Below are positions 386-20,956 of a stretch of DNA of 21,099 nt, piece by piece (the stretch's first letter is position 1; each line of letters starts with the position of its first letter). The stretch is taken from assembly GCA_043804695.1 (NCBI GenBank), contig JAZDIV010000030.1, forward strand, positions 1-21,099, written 5' to 3'. The position numbers and the translations under genes are program-made. Below the pieces are notes generated by a model. That model saw only the letters and a program-made list of their open reading frames with translations, was not told where the DNA came from and did no database searches. Source of the stretch: PVC group bacterium. Its GTDB lineage: Bacteria > Auribacterota > Erginobacteria > Erginobacterales > Erginobacteraceae.

Positions 386-1148
386 CTAACCGGATAATCC
401 TTCCCGCTTATGATGATCTTTAAGCCGGTCGATCACGCCCATTATCGCCCGGTAGAGGGAACCACGCCAGGATATCTTTCCGCAACCGGAACATATCCGA
501 AAATCATCATAGGCTATCTTCATCTTCGGCGGCAGGCAATCAATTATCTTTTCTTTGGCTACTTCTTTGATTTCTCCGTTGTAGGCCAGGCATCGCTTAA
601 ATGGTTTGATCTGCGAGAAGAGATCAAAACGCTCGAGCGCTGCCCGGGCCTGGTCTGTCGGTTCCTGGGAACTGATCCAGCAGCCGTGAGTTACCAGGGA
701 GTTCTTCAAAAGCCTCCGGTCCCGGGTCAGGATGATGCGCCGCTCTTTCAAGGAGATACGGACAATCTCCGGATCATCATATTAGTCAGTCCATAATTGT
801 ATGGACATCGAGGATGAAAGCGGTCTTCCGGAGCGGTTTTCCTCTCAAGCGGATCAGCGGGGAGATGTCCAGGCTCTCAAAGACCGGATAGACGGAGACC
901 CGGTCCGAGACCCGGAGAGGGTAGTCGAAGCCGACCGATCGGCCGTTCACCAGGATAACGTCCACTTCCGGGTGAGGCACTCCCAGAGCCTCAATCGCGT
1001 CCTTGACGGCGGGGGAGCCGCTGAAGCTGAAGGAGAATTCCTTCTGCTTTTTCTCCGGTTCGAGAAAATCATTGAGCTCGGCGTAAAAACGGGACCGGGC
1101 TGTCTTCTCATAAACGGGAAGTTCTGAATTTCCCGCAGTTACGCCCAC
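386..1148 (-). pseudogene. Mut7-C family gene (ubiquitin-like domain + PIN-type RNase/Zn ribbon), disrupted
   Basis: ORF 786-1148 carries RFYAELNDFL...KDAIEALGVPHPEVDVILVNG...VYPVFESLDI...FILDVH. Region 386-782 carries YDDPEIVRISLKERRIILTRDRRLL...RCLAYNG...CSGCGKISWRGSLY. The connecting segment (typically about 20 codons) is replaced by repeat-derived DNA containing a stop. Normally conserved RCxxCN and YWxGSH motifs appear degraded. Confidence 0.85.
780..808 (+). repeat. 29-bp left end of hairpin-headed element (TATTAGTCAGTCCATAATTGTATGGACAT), copy 1, inside the Mut7-C gene
   Basis: Identical to 15900-15928 and 20869-20897. Contains the hairpin GTCCATA-ATTG-TATGGAC. Confidence 0.95.
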
Positions 1149-1654
1149 CGCTCGTATCTCACGATCGCCTCCCGGGGCAACCGCCGCTTTTCTGCCGGAC
1201 CGGGGTCACTCGGGTACCCGATCGGGAGGAGTTCCACGACCCGGATTTTTGGGGGTATATTGAGAATCTCTTTAACCTGTTCTTCTGAGAAAGCCCCGAT
1301 CCAGCCGGTCCCCAGTCCCTCTGCGACCGCGCAGAGGGTAATCTGGTCGATCGCGATGGCGACGTCGATAGGATAGCAAAGCTGGCCGCAGGTCATGACA
1401 TGATTGTCAATCTCCGCGCAACAAACCAGAACTACCGGGGCCTTGGCGACGTAACTCTGTCCACCCGCCGCCATTGCCAGCTTCCGCCGTGTCTCCGGAT
1501 CACGCACTACCACGAAGCGCCACTCTTGAAAGTTCTTCGCCGATGGGGCGAGTCTCGCGGACTCCAAGAGCCGATGGATAACATCTTCATCGACATCCCG
1601 TTCCTGGAAGGCGCGGACACTCTTACGCAACTTGATAGCCTGATAAACATCCAT
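1139..1654 (-). CDS. nitroreductase family protein
   Basis: 171 aa with AIKLRKSVRAF, ARLAPSAKNFQEWRFVVV, DVAIAIDQITLCAVAEGLGTGWIG and LLPIGYP. GAGGAG RBS upstream. Confidence 0.93.
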   Translation of the reverse strand: MDVYQAIKLRKSVRAFQERDVDEDVIHRLLESARLAPSAKNFQEWRFVVVRDPETRRKLAMAAGGQSYVAKAPVVLVCCAEIDNHVMTCGQLCYPIDVAIAIDQITLCAVAEGLGTGWIGAFSEEQVKEILNIPPKIRVVELLPIGYPSDPGPAEKRRLPREAIVRYERWA

Positions 1655-1785
1655 GAAATTTCTCCTCGCAATTTTTGAATACTGTTCGTTATTCCTATCC
1701 AGTGTCTTTTAACCTCATTAAAATTGACTAAAAAGCCCCAGGCTGAGAGATACGAATCCGAGCCTGTCAAGTTCGCCGAATCTAA

Positions 1786-2071
1786 GAGGGATGATCCCTT
1801 CCCTGACTACGACAACGAACCGGTGATGATGTCCGCGGATGATTGAAACGCCCCGGCAGGGGTGGTCTATCTTCGGCACGCTGCTCAGCTCGCGAAGACG
1901 TGTCCAACCTGCCGGGCGCGGCATCCCCGTCGAGGAGGCGTGTCTCAACCACCGTCAGTCTCGCGCTCCTTCCCTCGCTTTGCTTCACTCATCTCCATGA
2001 AAGTGCTTCTTCAGCCCGGTTTCAACGGGCACGGGCCCGCCCTGCCTAAAAAGCGATTTCTTGTCAATTTA
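1786..2071 (+). mobile_element. IS91/ISCR-like remnant, copy 1 (putative transposase C-terminal tail + oriIS-like end)
   Basis: About 290-bp direct repeat of 4242-4538. Begins with codons for DDPFPDYDNEPVMMSADD* (TGA 1844-1846) and ends in a CGGGC-N4-GCCCG hairpin followed by AAAAAGCGATTTCTTGTCAATT. The repeat is certain; the IS91 assignment is by resemblance. Confidence 0.65.
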
Positions 2072-2194
2072 AGTCTTGCACTCCTTTCCGCGCTTTACTA
2101 TATTATCTCCATGAAAATGCTTCTTCTGTCCGGTTCCGGTTCGGTTTCCACGGGCGCGGGCCCGCCCTGCCAAAAAGCGATTTCTTACTCAATT
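2072..2194 (+). mobile_element. IS91/ISCR-like end, shorter divergent copy 2, directly abutting copy 1
   Basis: AGTCTTGCACTCC...ATCTCCATGAAAATGCTTCTTC...CGGGCGCGGGCCCGCCCTGCCAAAAAGCGATTTCTTACTCAATT aligns with the last ~115 bp of copies 1 and 3. Confidence 0.65.
2076..2104 (+). promoter_or_regulatory. sigma70-type promoter inside repeat copy 2, facing the 511-aa gene
   Basis: TTGCAC (2076-2081), 17-bp spacer, TATATT (2099-2104). Confidence 0.6.
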
Positions 2195-2223
2195 GACAAA
2201 CAACGATTAAATGGAGGTGATAT

Positions 2224-3759
2224 ATGAAGAGGAACAAGATGGTTTCAAAAGGCTTACTGTCAGTTATTCTTCTAGTTCTTGCATGTTGCTTTAACCCTGA
2301 AAATGCTCTTTGTATTTGCTTGAGTACGGAAACAGTTGAAGTTCAGCCTTCCGGATTAAGCAATACCTCGCTTGCATTCGATTGGGCTAGTCAACCGCAT
2401 GTCTGCTATACGGCTCCATTATCGCGCAGCGATTCCGATATATGGATTAAGTACGCCTTCAGAGATAAGGGAATTTGGAAGGTCGAGCCGGTGGTGCCGC
2501 AGGATGATCTGGGCATAATTAATAAAGCGATAATCAAGTTAAACAAGGAGGGCAAGCCTTACATTTTCATAGGTTTCTGGGCAGACAATCAATATAACGT
2601 GAGCAGGATATATAAGATGGATTCTATCTGGCAGATCGATGATCTGTACCAGAGCGAAGCCGGTGATGATTATCTGCTCGGCGCAGGCTGCACCTTTGCC
2701 CTGGATATTAGAACTGATCCGGTTCTTCTTCGACCCCACATTGTCCTGATAGCCACCTCCCGCCCCGAGAACAGGAGCGAAATACGTTACGTGAGACCTG
2801 ATGGTTCAGGATGGATTCCGCACATACTGGCGGAGCATAGCAGCGGAAATAATTACTTTTTCAGCCCTTCCCTTGCCATAGACAGGCTCGGCCGCGCGCA
2901 TATAGTTTACTCCAGCCATTGGCTCGAGAACTTTTGGGGCAACTGGTGGACTATGGGCAAGTTTGAGTATGCCCAGTGGGACGGGTCAAGGTGGACAAGA
3001 GAGCTCCTGCTGGGGCCGATAAATGATGGATTATACCAGGGTTTCCCATCCCGTCTCGTCTTAGATTCGGGAAATAGGCCGCATATCTGTTTGAGCATAT
3101 TCAGAGCAAGGGGGGGTGGGTTGATTTACCTCCGCAGGGAAGGTTATTACAACTGGGAATCTGAAATAATTGGCTATGGCATTCACAGCTCAGAGTTTGC
3201 ACTGACTGTTGATTTTGATGATAACGCTCATATAGCCTACCACAGTTACAATCCGGATGATGCGGACGAGCCGGGAGAGGTACGGTATTTGGTAGGGGAT
3301 GGTTCATCTTTTGAAGAGGAGTTGGTCGAGGCCAATCATGAAAGCAGCGAATTCTCCATAGGAATAGATTGGCAAAAGAAACCTCATATTATATACCATG
3401 ATTATAATCAGGGTTTGAATCATGCCTGCGAGGGATATTCCATAGCCGGAAAGATTAGCGGCTGGCCTTGGGTTTGGGATCGCGAGAACCGGATGTTTCG
3501 GACCAGTGGAATAGCGGGGGTACAGGTGACGGTGCAGGACGCCCGCGGAACCATTCTCCTTGCGCATAGCGCCTATACCAATGCTGAAGGCTACTATACA
3601 GTTGAGTGTCTTCCAGGACAGAAAAACTATACGGTAGTTCCCTCAAAGTTCAGCTACCGATTTTATCCCGCAGACAAGAGCCTCTGGTTGTGGAGAGATA
3701 CAGAGAATATATCGTTTTCAGGCCTGCCGTTTTATGTGTCATTTGGCTTGGCAGATTAA
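2224..3759 (+). CDS. secreted beta-propeller protein with C-terminal carboxypeptidase-regulatory-like (transthyretin-fold) domain
   Basis: GGAGGTG RBS and signal peptide. About 7 blades of type S-L-A-h-D-x-x-G-x-P/A-H-I-x-Y (SLAFDWASQPHVCY, SLAIDRLGRAHIVY, RLVLDSGNRPHICL, ALTVDFDDNAHIAY, SIGIDWQKKPHIIY). C-terminus GIAGVQVTV...TNAEGYYTVECLPGQKNYTVVPSK. Visibly more AT-rich than the core genes. Confidence 0.8.
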   Translation: MKRNKMVSKGLLSVILLVLACCFNPENALCICLSTETVEVQPSGLSNTSLAFDWASQPHVCYTAPLSRSDSDIWIKYAFRDKGIWKVEPVVPQDDLGIINKAIIKLNKEGKPYIFIGFWADNQYNVSRIYKMDSIWQIDDLYQSEAGDDYLLGAGCTFALDIRTDPVLLRPHIVLIATSRPENRSEIRYVRPDGSGWIPHILAEHSSGNNYFFSPSLAIDRLGRAHIVYSSHWLENFWGNWWTMGKFEYAQWDGSRWTRELLLGPINDGLYQGFPSRLVLDSGNRPHICLSIFRARGGGLIYLRREGYYNWESEIIGYGIHSSEFALTVDFDDNAHIAYHSYNPDDADEPGEVRYLVGDGSSFEEELVEANHESSEFSIGIDWQKKPHIIYHDYNQGLNHACEGYSIAGKISGWPWVWDRENRMFRTSGIAGVQVTVQDARGTILLAHSAYTNAEGYYTVECLPGQKNYTVVPSKFSYRFYPADKSLWLWRDTENISFSGLPFYVSFGLAD

Positions 3760-3790
3760 TAAAGGCTCAACCTAAAAAAGAGGTAAGCTG

Positions 3791-4170
3791 ATGAGAACAA
3801 AGTTGCTGGCAACAGTTGCTTTGATATCTCTGGTTACGTTTTTCCCGAAGTATCTTTTTAGTCAATATGCCCTGAATAGCAGTATAACCCTTTAAAAACC
3901 TACCAAACTACGGGTACTCTTACTCCTGAGACCAGCATAGATAGTACAAAGCTCACGGCGATTCAGCAGAATGGACCCGCTGCGGTAGCCGTCCCGGAAA
4001 TTGAGACTGATTCCTTTTTCTCGGATTTTGCGCATGCTGCAGGATCAAAACCAAAACTCTGCGATATTGACATAACCAGGACGGATAATCTAATTAATGT
4101 AGTGGCAAACTTTGAGAAACCAGAAGTTAAGCAGGTTGGTAAATATCACAGGGTAAGAGTTTCATGCCCG
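3791..4170 (+). pseudogene. frameshifted, 3'-truncated gene for a secreted protein (end coordinate approximate)
   Basis: GAGGT RBS and ATG 3791, reading MRTKLLATVALISLVTFFPKYLFSQ (signal peptide) to a stop at 3893-3895. A second frame is open from ~3880 (QYNPLKTYQTTG...DNLINVVANFEKPEVKQVGKYHRVRVS) and runs directly into the IS-like tail. Confidence 0.55.
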
Positions 4171-4241
4171 CAGCTTTCAGTCGAGCCCCGGCTTGGCTGC
4201 CCGCCGGAGCCCGCCGTAGCTTCAGCGAAGGCGGGGCGAAG

Positions 4242-4538
4242 GAGGGATGATCCCTTCCCTGACTACGACAACGAACCGGTGATGATGTACGCAGATGATG
4301 GAGACGCCCCGGCAGGGGCGGTCTGTCTTTGGTAGGCTGCTCAGCTCGCGAAGACATGTCCAATCTGCCGAACGTGGCATCCTCGGCGCGGCGGCGGGCC
4401 TCAACCACCCCTCAACCACCGTCAGTCTCGCGCTCCTTCCCTCGCTTTGCTTCACTCATCTCCATGAAAGTGCTTCTTCAGCCCGGTTTCAACGGGCGCC
4501 GGCCCGCCCTGCCCAAAAAGCGATTTCTTATCAATTTA
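4242..4538 (+). mobile_element. IS91/ISCR-like remnant, copy 3
   Basis: Direct repeat of 1786-2071 encoding DDPFPDYDNEPVMMYADD. Contains an 11-bp tandem duplication CCTCAACCACC (4399-4420) and ends AAAAAGCGATTTCTTATCAATTTA. Confidence 0.65.
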
Positions 4539-4679
4539 TCGGCGACCTCTGGTGCGAGCCGAGATATTATTTCGGTAGGGCAGTGGATTTTGTGGCGATT
4601 AAGAAGCCTGACATCTCACCACTCCCCAGTCTTGTAAAGACTGTGGAAGGTGCTAAGTTATAGAGGGGGTTCCAGGAAA

Positions 4680-5792
4680 GTGAGGCGACTGGTATCGATT
4701 GATATCCTCCGCGCGATTGCCATCCTGTTGATGATCCAGGTGCATTTCGTCGAGAACCTGTCTCCGCGGGAGGCGTCCTCGGAGATACTTTACCAGCTAT
4801 CTGCTCTCTTCGGCTTGCTGTCCGCCCCCCTCTTTACCTTCCTGGTGGGACTCAGCCTGTGGCTTTGGCTGCGTAAAGAGGAGGCCCTTGGCAATGTCGG
4901 GCCTGAGGCAGGCAGGTTCATTCTCCGCCGCGGCCTGTACCTGTTCGCGGGGGGCCTGATCTTCGCCGTCATCATCTGGCTTCCGAGGGAGGTGTTCGAT
5001 TGGGATGTCCTGACGCTTATAGGCGCGGCGACGTTGATCCTTTTGCCCCTGCGCAGGTTGAGGCTCGGAGCGCTTGTCGGGCTGGCGTTGCTGGTGCTTC
5101 TCATCAGCACGCCTCTCCGGGGGCTCACGGACTACGACTCCCACTGGGTGGACAGGGAATATGTCTACCAGTTCACGGTGAAGGATGTGGTCCTTGGGTT
5201 CCTGCTGCAGGGTTACTTCCCGCTCCTGCCCTGGCTCGTCTATCCTGTCCTGGGTTATGCCACGGGGGAGTATTTCTTCAAGGATGGGCCCGAGGGGTAC
5301 GGAGTTAGCTGGAGGATGCCCTTAGTCGGTCTGGCGCTGATTGCACTGGCATGGGCCGGTCACTGCCTGAGGTGGAGGTTCTCCCCTGTTTTTAGTGGAC
5401 TGGACGCCTTGAGCTTCTACCCCGCCTCGATGACGTTTATCCTGTGGACGCTGGGCTGGATCCTGCTGGGACTATGGGGAATGTACCGCTGGCTGGACAG
5501 CCGCGATAGCCCTGCAGAGGGACCGGTCTTGTCATTCTTCGGGCGATACAGCCGTTTTTCTCTTACGACTTACATCGTGCATCACGCTGTGACTATCTGG
5601 CCGATACTGCTACTGGCCGCATTGGAGGGGCGGGGTGACCCATGGTGGTACTATCGTGACGCGGTGAGCACGCCCGTGGCTCTTTTGCTGGCGCTCCTTT
5701 TCGTGGCCGGCTTCTATGTTGTGCTGATTTTCTGGGACAGGCGAAGGAAATACAGCTTCGAGTGGTTCCTGCGCTGGTTGAGCAGTCGATAA
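4680..5792 (+). CDS. DUF1624 / heparan-alpha-glucosaminide N-acetyltransferase-like multi-pass membrane protein
   Basis: RLVSIDILRAIAILLMIQVH, APLFTFLVGLS, RRGLYLF, WDVLTLIG, GYFPLLPWLVYPVLG and GRYSRFSLTTYIVHH, with many TM helices. GTG start at 4680 follows AGGAAA (ORF track start is 4650). Confidence 0.8.
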   Translation: MRRLVSIDILRAIAILLMIQVHFVENLSPREASSEILYQLSALFGLLSAPLFTFLVGLSLWLWLRKEEALGNVGPEAGRFILRRGLYLFAGGLIFAVIIWLPREVFDWDVLTLIGAATLILLPLRRLRLGALVGLALLVLLISTPLRGLTDYDSHWVDREYVYQFTVKDVVLGFLLQGYFPLLPWLVYPVLGYATGEYFFKDGPEGYGVSWRMPLVGLALIALAWAGHCLRWRFSPVFSGLDALSFYPASMTFILWTLGWILLGLWGMYRWLDSRDSPAEGPVLSFFGRYSRFSLTTYIVHHAVTIWPILLLAALEGRGDPWWYYRDAVSTPVALLLALLFVAGFYVVLIFWDRRRKYSFEWFLRWLSSR

Positions 5793-5810
5793 GCTGCAAT
5801 AGGGGACGGT

Positions 5811-5912
5811 CTTAACTTACTGCTTCGGAATTTTCAGCCTGAGGCTTCAGTCAGAGGCTTCAGCCTGAGGCTGATCCGCCTCGGGAGGAGATCCGCCTCT
5901 GGCGCACAATAA
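5811..5912 (+). repeat. mini-hairpin-module element, expanded copy
   Basis: CTTAACTTACTGCTTCGGAATTTT, then three TCAGCCTGAGGCT-like and two GATCCGCCTC modules, then GGCGCACAATAA. Homologous to the reverse complement of 15679-15737. Confidence 0.85.
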
Positions 5913-5980
5913 ACCGCGGATTAAACGGATTAAGCGGATTGTTTTTTCTTTAATCAGCATAATCCGCACAATCCGCGGTT
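5912..5980. repeat. inverted array of 9-bp CGGATT units
   Basis: AACCGCGGATT (5912-5922) pairs with AATCCGCGGTT (5970-5980), with three 9-bp-period units on each arm. Confidence 0.8.
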
Positions 5981-6148
5981 AAATAATAGTCGGCCCGGCT
6001 TGCCTCCCGGCGCTCGCTAGACCCCGCCAGTTGCGCTTACACCTCGGGATCGATCCGCACCCGGTCATCGGGCACGACGCCGACATGCTCGCTGAGCCAA
6101 TCGGGGGACCTATGGGCAAGCCCATGATCTTCTGCGGCAGATAAGAAA

Positions 6149-10220: not shown

Positions 10221-10285
10221 GAAAAAACAGTATGCCGGGACCGTCCAACCGTGGTTGCTATAGGTTACTTCTTGAACGAGGTAGA

Positions 10286-10336
10286 TAACCGGGATGATTC
10301 ATGAAAATTGACAATTTTCATGAATCATCCCGGTTA
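10286..10336. repeat. 51-bp palindrome (two perfect 25-bp arms, 1-nt centre), TA at both ends
   Basis: TAACCGGGATGATTCATGAAAATTG-A-CAATTTTCATGAATCATCCCGGTTA. Confidence 0.95.
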
Positions 10337-10338
10337 AC

Positions 10339-10367
10339 TTGACATTCCGGAAATAATATGTTAAAAA
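10339..10367 (+). promoter_or_regulatory. sigma70-type promoter for dnaG-rpoD
   Basis: TTGACA (10339-10344), 17-bp spacer ending TGT, TAAAAA (10362-10367). Confidence 0.55.
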
Positions 10368-15899: not shown

Positions 15900-16054
15900 T
15901 ATTAGTCAGTCCATAATTGTATGGACATGTCATTGCGAGGTGCGAGATCCTTCGCTATCGCTCGGGACAGGCTACGCAATCTCAACTATATGCACAGCAA
16001 GAGATTGCTTCCCGCCACGCTTTGCTCGCGGCTTCGGCTAACGCTCGCAATGAC
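15900..16054 (+). repeat. hairpin-headed nested palindromic element (MITE/RPE-like), longest copy
   Basis: 29-bp head, then GTCATTGCGAG (15929-15939) pairing with CTCGCAATGAC (16044-16054), enclosing GCAATCTC (15976-15983) pairing with GAGATTGC (16001-16008). Confidence 0.85.
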
Positions 16055-20867: not shown

Positions 20868-20956
20868 ATATTAGTCAGTCCATAATTGTATGGACATGTC
20901 ATTGCGAGGAGCAAAGCGATGAAGCAATCTCAACTCTATGCACAGCAAGAGATTGC
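20868..20956 (+). repeat. hairpin-headed nested palindromic element, 3'-truncated copy
   Basis: Same head and GTCATTGCGAGG as the 15900 copy. GCAATCTC-AACTCTATGCACAGCAA-GAGATTGC has one loop mismatch versus 15976-16008, and similarity stops at 20956. Confidence 0.85.

Follow-up and report, generated by a model that had tools for sequence, protein, structure and literature searches.

The question raised by this locus is what the three copies of one short sequence are, which lie in the same orientation in the 21,099-nt stretch of DNA analysed here (the window), and whether they have a part in the arrival of the genes that they enclose. The copies had been proposed by a sequence-only reading, and they are borne out by a repeat search of the window (1786-1953 against 4242-4409, 88%; 1944-2071 against 4411-4538, 97%), by blastn against the whole assembly, where copy 1 and copy 3 are 88.2% identical over 297 nt and copy 2 (2072-2194) is 78% identical to both, and by direct reading; the short repeat families D4 and D6 tie all three together. 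Their termini, ...GCGATTTCTT(G/A/AC)TCAAT(T), are located at 2069, 2194 and 4536. The constant stem with a changing loop that had been reported is read in all three copies as CGGGC-N4-GCCCG (loops ACGG, GCGG and GCCG), and 3' of this hairpin each has AAAAAGCGATTTCTT(G/AC/A)TCAATT. A coding tail, RDDPFPDYDNEPVMM(S/Y)ADD, is found at 1787-1846 and from 4243.

Each copy corresponds to the final 120-330 bp of an element, with C-terminal codons of the transposase, the 3' untranslated region, putative palindromes in subterminal position and the invariant terminus ...GCGATTTCTTRTCAAT, and all three copies are on the + strand. Copy 1 (1760..2069), which we assign as a 5'-truncated right (oriIS) end of an IS91-family IS, has the last ~20 codons of the transposase at 1787-1846 (stop codon 1844-1846), a terminator-like hairpin at 1849-1864 and, in its 3' part, the 3' untranslated region, a CCATGAAAGTGCT box, the hairpin CGGGC-ACGG-GCCCG and the terminus ...GATTTCTTGTCAATT. 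Copy 2 (2072..2194) is a shorter right-end fragment of 123 nt that follows head-to-tail, starting 0-3 nt past the terminus of copy 1; its own terminus carries a 1-nt insertion (TTACTCAATT). Copy 3 (4207..4536) is a right-end remnant with a GC-rich palindromic insert (about 4207-4245), and a transposase tail from 4243 whose stop is lost so that the frame is open to 4335. It also has a terminator-like hairpin (4305-4320) and, in its 3' part, an 11-nt duplication of CCTCAACCACC, the CGGGC-GCCG-GCCCG hairpin and the terminus ...TTCTTATCAATT.

The right boundary is constant, the left boundaries vary among the copies, and the flanks of the copies are mutually unrelated. The limits first given for the copies need correction on both sides: on the right the element truly ends with the T of TCAAT or with the next T (2068/2069, 2193/2194, 4535/4536), and on the left the similarity of copies 1 and 3 reaches about 1760 and about 4207 instead of 1786 and 4242. 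This leftward extension, ~27-36 nt long, crosses the GC-rich palindromic insert with indels, and the argument for a discrete 290-bp mobile unit with one sharp left boundary has therefore been dropped. A ter-like tetranucleotide was looked for at the left boundaries and none is held in common. Terminal inverted repeats and target duplications are absent from the window copies, as had been stated, and from two full-length relatives as well.

In IS91/ISCR elements the oriIS lies downstream of the transposase gene and has a AATTCCTAT-like terminal motif; the terminus of the window ends reads ...GATTTCTTATCAAT(T). IS91-family transposases of ~450 aa (Zn_Tnp_IS91 + Y2_Tnp) have the peptide tail as their conserved C-terminus; it aligns to residues 435-452 of full-length proteins at 78-82%, and the window retains only the last 18-20 transposase codons. 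A degraded copy on contig C118 has a Y2_Tnp-like stretch (16.4 bits on the Y2_Tnp profile, under the 20.9 cut-off) followed by ...DDDPFPDHEQEPVFMA and a stop. It has 152 homologues at E<=0.001, nearly all annotated PF04986, among them ~450-aa proteins with PF14319 + PF04986; the full-length homologues end in DDPFPDYDTEPVMAYANG or near variants in 8 of the 10 sequences examined, and an HPHLH/HPHVH motif is seen in them. The domain combination of the IS91 family, an N-terminal Zn-binding domain (PF14319) with an HUH/Y2 domain (PF04986), is thus present in the full-length relatives of the tail, and with these homologue searches the objection that the tail never occurs on an IS91 transposase fails. 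One full-length relative (L040:1333-3020, 1,688 bp) ends in the same terminal motif as the window copies and has a second copy at 94% identity, with neither inverted repeats nor duplications. It and another full-length copy (L111) have unrelated flanks and no junction repeat, the left end being TCTTCATGGGTATGCC and the right end ...TTCTTATCAAT(T/C); the conserved end lies ~225-265 nt past the transposase stop codon. Because the tail is the C-terminus of an IS91 transposase and a full-length relative shares the terminus, the copies are, as judged from sequence, transposase-less, 5'-truncated right (oriIS) ends of IS91-family rolling-circle IS, and in this respect the earlier proposal of oriIS ends lacking a transposase holds.

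How sharply is this end defined? The 20-nt terminal motif turns up in 95 GTDB genome stretches where chance would give about 2 by our own arithmetic, and an exact-pattern scan of metagenome contigs with ATCTCCATGAAARTGCTTCTT returned 0 matches. The bases 3' of TCAATT are random in 82 ends from other genomes (position +1: A27 C20 G17 T18; +2 to +8 likewise unconserved), and the 20th base varies once mismatches are allowed. A conserved CTTG/GTTC-type target tetranucleotide beside oriIS was not found, only a pyrimidine bias after TCAAT (22/32), and the final 1-4 conserved bases might be target-derived. About half of 45 ends have a GC hairpin 9-20 nt ahead of AAAGCG, with stems CGGGC/GCCCG or CGGCC/GGCCG; a 5-bp hairpin is by itself not statistically unusual for so GC-rich a context, being equalled in 38-54 of 200 shuffles. 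In DNA folds the CATGAAAG box pairs with the terminal motif over a longer stretch, with z-scores of -0.6 to -1.9; hairpin tests on single sequences gave no significance, and RNAalifold gives no consensus hairpin for the 45 ends across subfamilies because these vary in length and stem sequence. A sigma-70 promoter scan of 1600-4800, whose consensus may not suit the phylum, found one site, within the 511-aa gene described below (3.1 expected), and none in the ends. Terminator-like sites number 3 against 3.3 expected, two of them being the conserved hairpin right after the transposase stop.

We turn our attention to the DNA between the copies. The segment at 2195..4206 (+) is AT-richer (GC 0.41-0.53 against 0.57-0.65 in the flanks) and is the candidate cargo; a search of 13 relatives did not find these 2.0 kb, which separate copy 2 from copy 3. 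The segment holds an orphan lipoprotein-like gene of 511 aa (2224..3759, +), whose start codon is 30 nt past the copy 2 terminus and whose product bears LVLAC|C in an N-terminal signal and, at the C-terminus, a weak CarboxypepD_reg-like domain under the cut-off; the homologue search gave one match at 26% identity and no clue to origin. A second small secreted-protein gene (3792..4206, +) is frameshifted, with a 35-codon signal-peptide ORF and then frame +2 from 3880, and its reading frame continues into the tail of copy 3. The sole homologue of this broken gene is a repeat in a 3795-aa protein, which offers no clue to its origin or to its former extent past copy 3. Co-oriented and 112 nt downstream of copy 3 lies a membrane acyltransferase gene (HGSNAT_cat / Acyl_transf_3; 4650..5792, +), which was likewise not found in the 13 relatives. 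The conserved left flank is a nitroreductase gene (1139..1654, -) and the conserved right flank starts at 6143. In a same-genus relative the nitroreductase gene is 33 kb from the right flank and inverted relative to it, so that the locus sits at a synteny break, and the flanks are adjacent in 0 of 9 relatives, which leaves the window locus without an empty site. A search for an empty site at the DNA level around another array (G062:C1) in 12 relatives matched short repeats alone because the relatives are too diverged.

The repeat is not limited to this locus, since a genome search finds 8 termini of the family on 5 contigs of the assembly (88% complete), and the family is widespread, mostly in PVC-group genomes. 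Across genomes it is the right end that persists, and most loci that have 3 kb of upstream sequence are without any transposase. The exact abutment of window copies 1 and 2 has counterparts elsewhere, with 47 + 47 nt at L056 and 92 + 36 + 35 nt at L077. In five genomes 17 of 18 neighbouring end pairs less than 6 kb apart are co-oriented, and there are 22 end pairs within 6 kb against about 2.1 by chance (our own arithmetic for the expectation). The arrays have 1-4 genes between ends, often with a transposase remnant just ahead of the downstream end. Both the stacking of ends and the same-orientation arrays enclosing genes, first described for the window, are accordingly seen again in other genomes.

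We consider it fairly likely that the locus is a head-to-tail stack of decayed IS91-family right ends, fossils of one-ended or abortive rolling-circle transposition that were joined at an existing end. The transposase would nick at oriIS and the strand would be peeled off starting from the ori end; an early stop would transfer only the ori-proximal piece, while a run past the left end would carry upstream DNA too. If new pieces were joined preferentially at the nick site of a resident end, exact stacks and same-orientation arrays would result, and 2195-4536 (the orphan lipoprotein gene, the broken gene and copy 3) could be one unit laid onto copy 2. The ends would now be fossils that may still give a 5' leader to genes starting 20-290 nt downstream. 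The patterns are consistent with an origin of the fragments by one-ended or abortive transposition, which we infer from them, and their being common to related bacteria hints at gene capture; such capture, and likewise a cassette system of the integron type, would be plausible. For IS801, right-end fragments of 229, 360 and 679 nt accounted for 26% of the transposition events trapped in the experiments described in the part of PMC3189936 available, and for IS91 the available part of PMC13181058 gives a bottom-strand single-stranded circle and frequent one-ended transposition. Against the one-ended reading, the left boundaries lack a ter-like tetranucleotide, unlike those of the IS801 mini-fragments, the terminus is not followed by a conserved target tetranucleotide, and insertion that is local and strand-biased could also give the same-orientation clustering. 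Identities of 78-96% among the copies mark the events as old, and deletions have certainly played a part as well. Of the earlier proposal of a gene-capture locus, the stacked oriIS ends without transposase stand, while present mobility of the ends, a transposase acting in trans and the shuffling of "surface-protein cassettes" are conjectural; the cargo genes of arrays elsewhere are mixed in kind.

Plain decay is an account that we hold to be rather unlikely. It supposes that full-length IS copies were inserted independently at intergenic sites near one another, that deletions then left their right ends, and that the genes between are an islet acquired otherwise. On this account the shared orientation would come from a single-strand-specific HUH transposase that favours one replication strand and hops locally. 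Deleted or degraded copies do exist (C118, L191 and the internally deleted C46:38793-38908, L189 and L190), some arrays (L189, L191) have intervening genes on both strands, and even single ends commonly lie just 5' of a co-oriented gene (43 co-oriented against 25 opposite at 73 loci, by a rough ORF call). The authors of the IS801 study, in the available part of their paper, judge natural fragments to be mostly products of rearrangement and not of one-ended transposition (PMC3189936). Random deletion should, however, yield left-end fragments equally often, and in five genomes 10 of 12 Y2_Tnp matches are partial, all ten keeping the C-terminal end of the model (starts 96-148); N-terminal-domain matches number only 4, two of them in full copies. 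Deletion also fails to account for fragments that start exactly at the final base of another copy (window, L056, L077), and ends only 22-40 nt long with unrelated DNA upstream still retain a perfect terminus.

That the PVC-group IS91 clade is a working cassette system seems to us distinctly unlikely. Units of "gene + oriIS" would be cut from one ori to the next ori upstream, and the companion step, to which we give as little credence, would have a Y2 HUH transposase, supplied in trans, insert them at any ori junction already present, producing same-orientation arrays of near-promoterless accessory genes. Units between two same-orientation termini, with one co-oriented gene 3-50 nt past the upstream terminus, are present in six genomes; the bracketed genes are accessory, as are those of the window (not found in 13 relatives) and a 469-aa cargo at L075 (in 1 of 25 relatives, at 30% identity); and ends inside one array are up to 98-100% identical (L186, L189). 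A second genome has an 81% homologue of the 415-aa cargo at L045, without ends and in unrelated surroundings, which is weak evidence because this cargo belongs to a 13-member paralogue family. Against such a system, no cassette was found in two arrays, no intact transposase of the clade is in the assembly (88% complete), and the cargo is heterogeneous, some arrays having several genes on both strands.

We regard it as very improbable that the repeats are a local segmental duplication, integron attC sites, 3' fragments of group II introns, or right ends of IS200/IS605 elements with their omega-RNA. Several element types would at first glance account for copies that are cut variably on the 5' side but fixed on the 3' side, with a subterminal hairpin and with neither inverted repeats nor duplications. 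Copy 3, though, matches copies on contig C46 better (93-96%) than it matches copy 1 (88%), and the copy flanks are unrelated, which argues against duplication; Rfam gives no match at gathering score and only chance-level matches at E up to 10, and the coding tail is from a Y2_Tnp protein, not a reverse transcriptase or TnpB. The Rfam result and the Y2 transposase tail rule out a group II intron, omega-RNA or other known RNA. A simple duplication would also keep the gene content between the copies the same in relatives, and this fails with the intervening DNA not found in 13 of them. An integron cassette array is rejected in turn, the repeats being IS91 right ends with a transposase tail and no integrase being found among the annotated ORFs of the window. 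Integron arrays do share same-orientation units, each with a terminal recombination site, and genes near the unit boundary; unlike them, the window has no tyrosine-recombinase integrase among its annotated ORFs and no apparent attC architecture.

Stacking of right ends, as we prefer to read the locus, has precedents by analogy in IS801, with experiment, and in Helitrons. The available part of PMC3189936 (Bardaji et al. 2011) shows experimentally that one-ended transposition, with the transposase in trans, generates IS801 fragments and mobilises them, and its miniature sequences from Pseudomonas syringae resemble the window ends in having no transposase, an intact right (ori) end, a variable left boundary and, often, adjoining accessory genes. 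The window ends differ in belonging to another clade and phylum and in having no ter-like left tetranucleotide or conserved target tetranucleotide; their exact head-to-tail stacking and multi-end arrays are not described for IS801 in that part of the paper. [quoted passage not shown] They differ in being eukaryotic, in their Rep-helicase fusion, and in a fixed 5' and variable 3' end, the opposite polarity relative to the transposase gene (PMC4778049, same portion).

The window ends lack the CTTG/GTTC target rule of IS91/IS1294 and ISCR, have another terminus motif, are right ends only and show no promoter in the sigma-70 scan. It is a common belief that one-ended rolling-circle transposition lets IS91/ISCR elements carry neighbouring genes along. 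The same portion of PMC4778049 calls the evidence for this kind of transduction circumstantial. From the parts of PMC13181058 and PMC6218425 available, IS91/IS1294 and ISCR resemble this clade in an HUH transposase with a Zn-binding N-terminus, an oriIS 3' of tnpA with palindromes near the end that are putative in this clade, the lack of inverted repeats and duplications and, on the reading proposed here, failed termination that mobilises upstream DNA; they add that the ISCR1 ori end has outward promoters and that ISCR elements sit beside resistance genes.

The footprint of this clade is very clean, with an invariant terminus of ~20 nt suited to exact searches, fragments of right ends only, exact stacks, and arrays with accessory genes. 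It opens two testable questions: can the Y2 transposase terminate at an upstream ori, and will it insert at an ori junction that is already resident? If both answers are no, the locus is an ordinary IS-fragment graveyard with an accessory islet at a synteny break. Were the cassette reading true, integrons would have a counterpart based on rolling-circle transposition, and Helitron gene capture a counterpart in bacteria.

We begin with the three copies in the window. A repeat search of the window, blastn against the whole assembly and a reading of the shared hairpin and terminus all bear out the three same-orientation end copies described in the sequence-only reading (copy 1, 1760 to 2069; copy 2, 2072 to 2194; copy 3, 4207 to 4536; all on the forward strand). 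The repeat search pairs 1786-1953 with 4242-4409 (88%) and 1944-2071 with 4411-4538 (97%) and gives short repeat families common to all three copies; blastn gives 88.2% identity between copies 1 and 3 (297 nt) and 78% between copy 2 (2072-2194) and either of them. The conserved stem with a variable loop is likewise found in every copy: CGGGC-N4-GCCCG, with loops ACGG, GCGG and GCCG, is followed by AAAAAGCGATTTCTT(G/AC/A)TCAATT, beyond which there is no similarity. Copies 1 and 3 open with codons for RDDPFPDYDNEPVMM(S/Y)ADD. Of the copy limits first proposed, the abrupt stop on the right stands, but the element ends at TCAAT(T), two bases earlier, and on the left copies 1 and 3 can be aligned with indels for about 27-36 nt more (to ~1760 and ~4207), across a small GC-rich palindromic insert.

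The next question is to which family these ends belong. The repeat is also present elsewhere in the assembly, on contigs C129, C46 (three times) and C102, and a second subfamily with an identical last 22 nt is found on C118 and C40. Upstream of the C118 copy lies a decayed reading frame (...GWKHSGFNLHRSRRV...LAQYIIRSPFSLEKM..., with frame breaks, ending ...DDDPFPDHEQEPVFMA*) that matches Y2_Tnp weakly (16.4 bits, cut-off 20.9). As a protein query this fragment finds 152 proteins at E<=0.001, and its full-length homologues, of about 450 aa, carry PF14319 (Zn_Tnp_IS91) and PF04986 (Y2_Tnp). Eight full-length homologues among ten fetched end in DDPFPDYDTEPVMAYANG, DDPFPDYDTEPQMMYANG, DEDPFPDYEQEPVTMAS and similar, and the window tail matches residues 435-452 of the full-length transposases at 78-82%. 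This match at the C-terminus identifies the tail peptide as the conserved C-terminus of a clade of IS91-family transposases, in keeping with the assignment first made. Rfam yields no match, and there is no tRNA.

The terminus can be placed exactly. GTDB species genomes contain the 20-nt pattern AAAGCGATTTCTTRTCAATT in 95 stretches, where simple arithmetic gives about 2 by chance; going by record titles, most come from Verrucomicrobiota, Kiritimatiellia and Lentisphaerae, and some from Desulfobacterota and other groups. In 82 occurrences that we read, the bases 3' of the motif are random (+1 = A27 C20 G17 T18), and the motif is therefore the exact, invariant right terminus of the element. At one locus in another genome, L040, an entire transposase gene lies about 265 nt upstream of the terminus, and comparison with a further copy in that genome (94% identity) sets the element bounds at L040:1333-3020 (1,688 bp). 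On the left the element begins TCTTCATGGGTATGCC, and it is without inverted repeats and without a duplication. The window copies share with it the coding tail, an CCATGAAAG(T/C)GCT box, the GC hairpin and the terminal motif; in the middle part of the 3' untranslated region the sequences have drifted apart.

A search of the 155-contig, 88%-complete assembly with an nhmmer profile built on the last 95 nt gives eight intact termini: three in the window contig (C30), two on C46, and one each on C129, C118 and C40. An internally deleted copy at C46:38793-38908 still ends in TCTTATCAAT, and the C102 piece is a fragment without a terminus. Using tblastn with eight full-length transposases, we obtain three matches only, namely the decayed copy on C118, the tail in the window and a truncated transposase on C70, 32-35% identical and from another IS91-type clade, in which a stop directly follows the HUH motif. 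The latter is an AT-richer remnant (C70:20689-21147, reverse strand) with Zn_Tnp_IS91 and the first 28 Y2_Tnp positions; its C-terminal piece is separate and lies in a different frame. No intact transposase is assembled at this 88% completeness; one may still exist unassembled, because assemblies of this kind often miss multi-copy elements.

Several smaller features accompany the ends. A terminator-like hairpin (1849-1864 and 4305-4320; CGCCCCGGCAGGGG(T/C)G, then a T-rich run) lies a few bases 3' of the transposase stop-codon position, is kept in copies 1 and 3 and on C129 and C102, and is probably the tnpA terminator. Directly 5' of the DDPFPDY codons of copy 3 is a GC-rich palindromic mini-insert (4170-4245; ...CCCGCC...GCTTCAGCGAAGGCGGG...). 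The unrelated full-length transposase P0001 has a similar insert at the same position, a further-upstream one interrupts the C118 (C118:13380-13500) and P0001 genes, and there is a 26-nt match on C62; this suggests a small repeat that targets the IS91-family element studied here. Elsewhere in the window, a cluster of abundant short (~80-100 nt) hairpin-containing repeats at 5807-5990 has dozens of 80-99% matches, spread over the assembly and over at least four relatives at the family level (G001, G003, G004, G006). A small family, TATTAGTCAGTCCATAATTGTATGGACATG..., with a GTCCATA/TATGGAC hairpin, occurs at 780-823, 15900-15943 and 20869-20912 (with 15976-16008 / 20924-20956) and has exact 29-nt matches on C88 and C77. 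A 28-nt near-perfect palindrome (10283-10339, 96% complementary, 1-nt centre) lies directly upstream of the dnaG start.

We turn our attention to what the fragments retain. Their left boundaries vary, recognisable ends being ~22 nt to ~500 nt long, and most loci with 3 kb of upstream sequence have no transposase at all. In five genomes that hold arrays, the bias is toward the right end: 10 of 12 Y2_Tnp matches are partial, all ten keep the C-terminal end of the model and start at positions 96-148, and the N-terminal Zn domain is matched only four times, twice in full copies and at least once in a copy with an internal deletion that retains its right end. Fragments also abut exactly, one starting at the last base of another, in copies 1 and 2 of the window, at L056 (47 + 47 nt) and at L077 (92 + 36 + 35 nt).

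On a larger scale the ends form same-orientation arrays. The five genomes hold 82 termini at 3 mismatches (none with the reversed-pattern control), 29 of them within arrays; 22 pairs lie within 6 kb, against ~2.1 expected arithmetically under random placement, and 17 of 18 neighbouring pairs within this distance share an orientation. The present genome adds four such pairs, in the window and on C46. Between the ends lie one to four genes, mostly co-oriented with them (on both strands at L189 and L191). A transposase remnant often directly precedes the downstream end of a pair, in some arrays a sole 75-110-nt end fragment directly follows a gene, and ends of one array are 75% to 100% identical.

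The DNA so bracketed is accessory in nature. The middle segment of the window (2195-4206) has a GC content of 0.41-0.53, and the genes flanking it have 0.57-0.65. A gene in this segment specifies a lipoprotein-like orphan of 511 aa, for which 5.8 billion proteins yield one match (26% identical) and 13 relatives no more than weak partial matches in two; the segment also contains a frameshifted small secreted-protein gene whose frame continues into copy 3. The acyltransferase gene 3' of copy 3 (4650 to 5792, forward strand) is not found in the 13 relatives. In a same-genus genome the conserved left flank (nitroreductase) and the conserved right flank (from 6143) are 33 kb apart and inverted, which makes the locus an accessory islet at a break in synteny.

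How might such ends arise? In published work, IS91 transposition runs from oriIS to terIS by way of a single-stranded circle of the bottom strand, and termination often fails (PMC13181058); right-end fragments of 229, 360 and 679 nt made up 26% of trapped IS801 events, in which upstream DNA was also carried along (PMC3189936). We favour, with moderate confidence, right ends as products of early-stopped or upstream-carrying transfer, joined at resident ends. The fragments would be ori-proximal pieces transferred when strand displacement halted early, and longer units would take upstream DNA along; the nick site of a resident end would be a preferred joining point, giving stacks and arrays, and 2195-4536 may be a single cargo-bearing unit placed on copy 2. 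Against this, no event, circle or empty site is seen; as read from sequence, no ter-like tetranucleotide is common to the left boundaries, and the bases after the terminus show no target of the CTTG/GTTC type. Also counted against it are the subterminal hairpin, statistically unexceptional in fold and shuffle tests and consensus folding, and the ends' lack of any predicted sigma-70-like promoter. Natural IS801 fragments, moreover, are attributed by their authors mostly to rearrangement (PMC3189936), which counts against transfer; independent insertions with deletion afterwards, set beside the shared C-terminal ends and exact junctions, seem to us rather unlikely. An actively working ori-to-ori cassette system is doubtful, and any other reading is very improbable.

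IS91-family ends, one-ended transposition and miniature right-end fragments are already known, and eukaryotic Helitrons similarly show truncated copies and 5'-to-3' abutting insertions (PMC4778049). We find no description of head-to-tail right-end stacks, or of same-orientation arrays with genes between, for bacterial IS91-family elements in keyword searches of the open-access literature, the primary IS91/ISCR work being largely in subscription journals.

Ends also lie close to genes. A co-oriented gene starts 20-290 nt downstream of all six intact ends examined in this genome, two of which belong to a tandem duplication that includes the end: on C46, a 570-nt unit (44042-44599 and 48149-48715, 91%) takes in an IS right end, the leader and the signal peptides, identical to each other, of two neighbouring large secreted proteins that carry TSP3 repeats; one of these proteins has a CBM96 domain and the other is an S8 subtilase. 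Across the arrays, start codons come as near as 3-50 nt 3' of the upstream terminus. In other genomes, at L184:3362, L186:5276, L192:7566 and L188:997 (oriented coordinates), an ATG follows the terminus by 3-7 nt (...TCAAT nn ATGA...), CATGA being the conserved subterminal box of the element as well, and at these four loci the IS end would contain the leader of the gene that follows.
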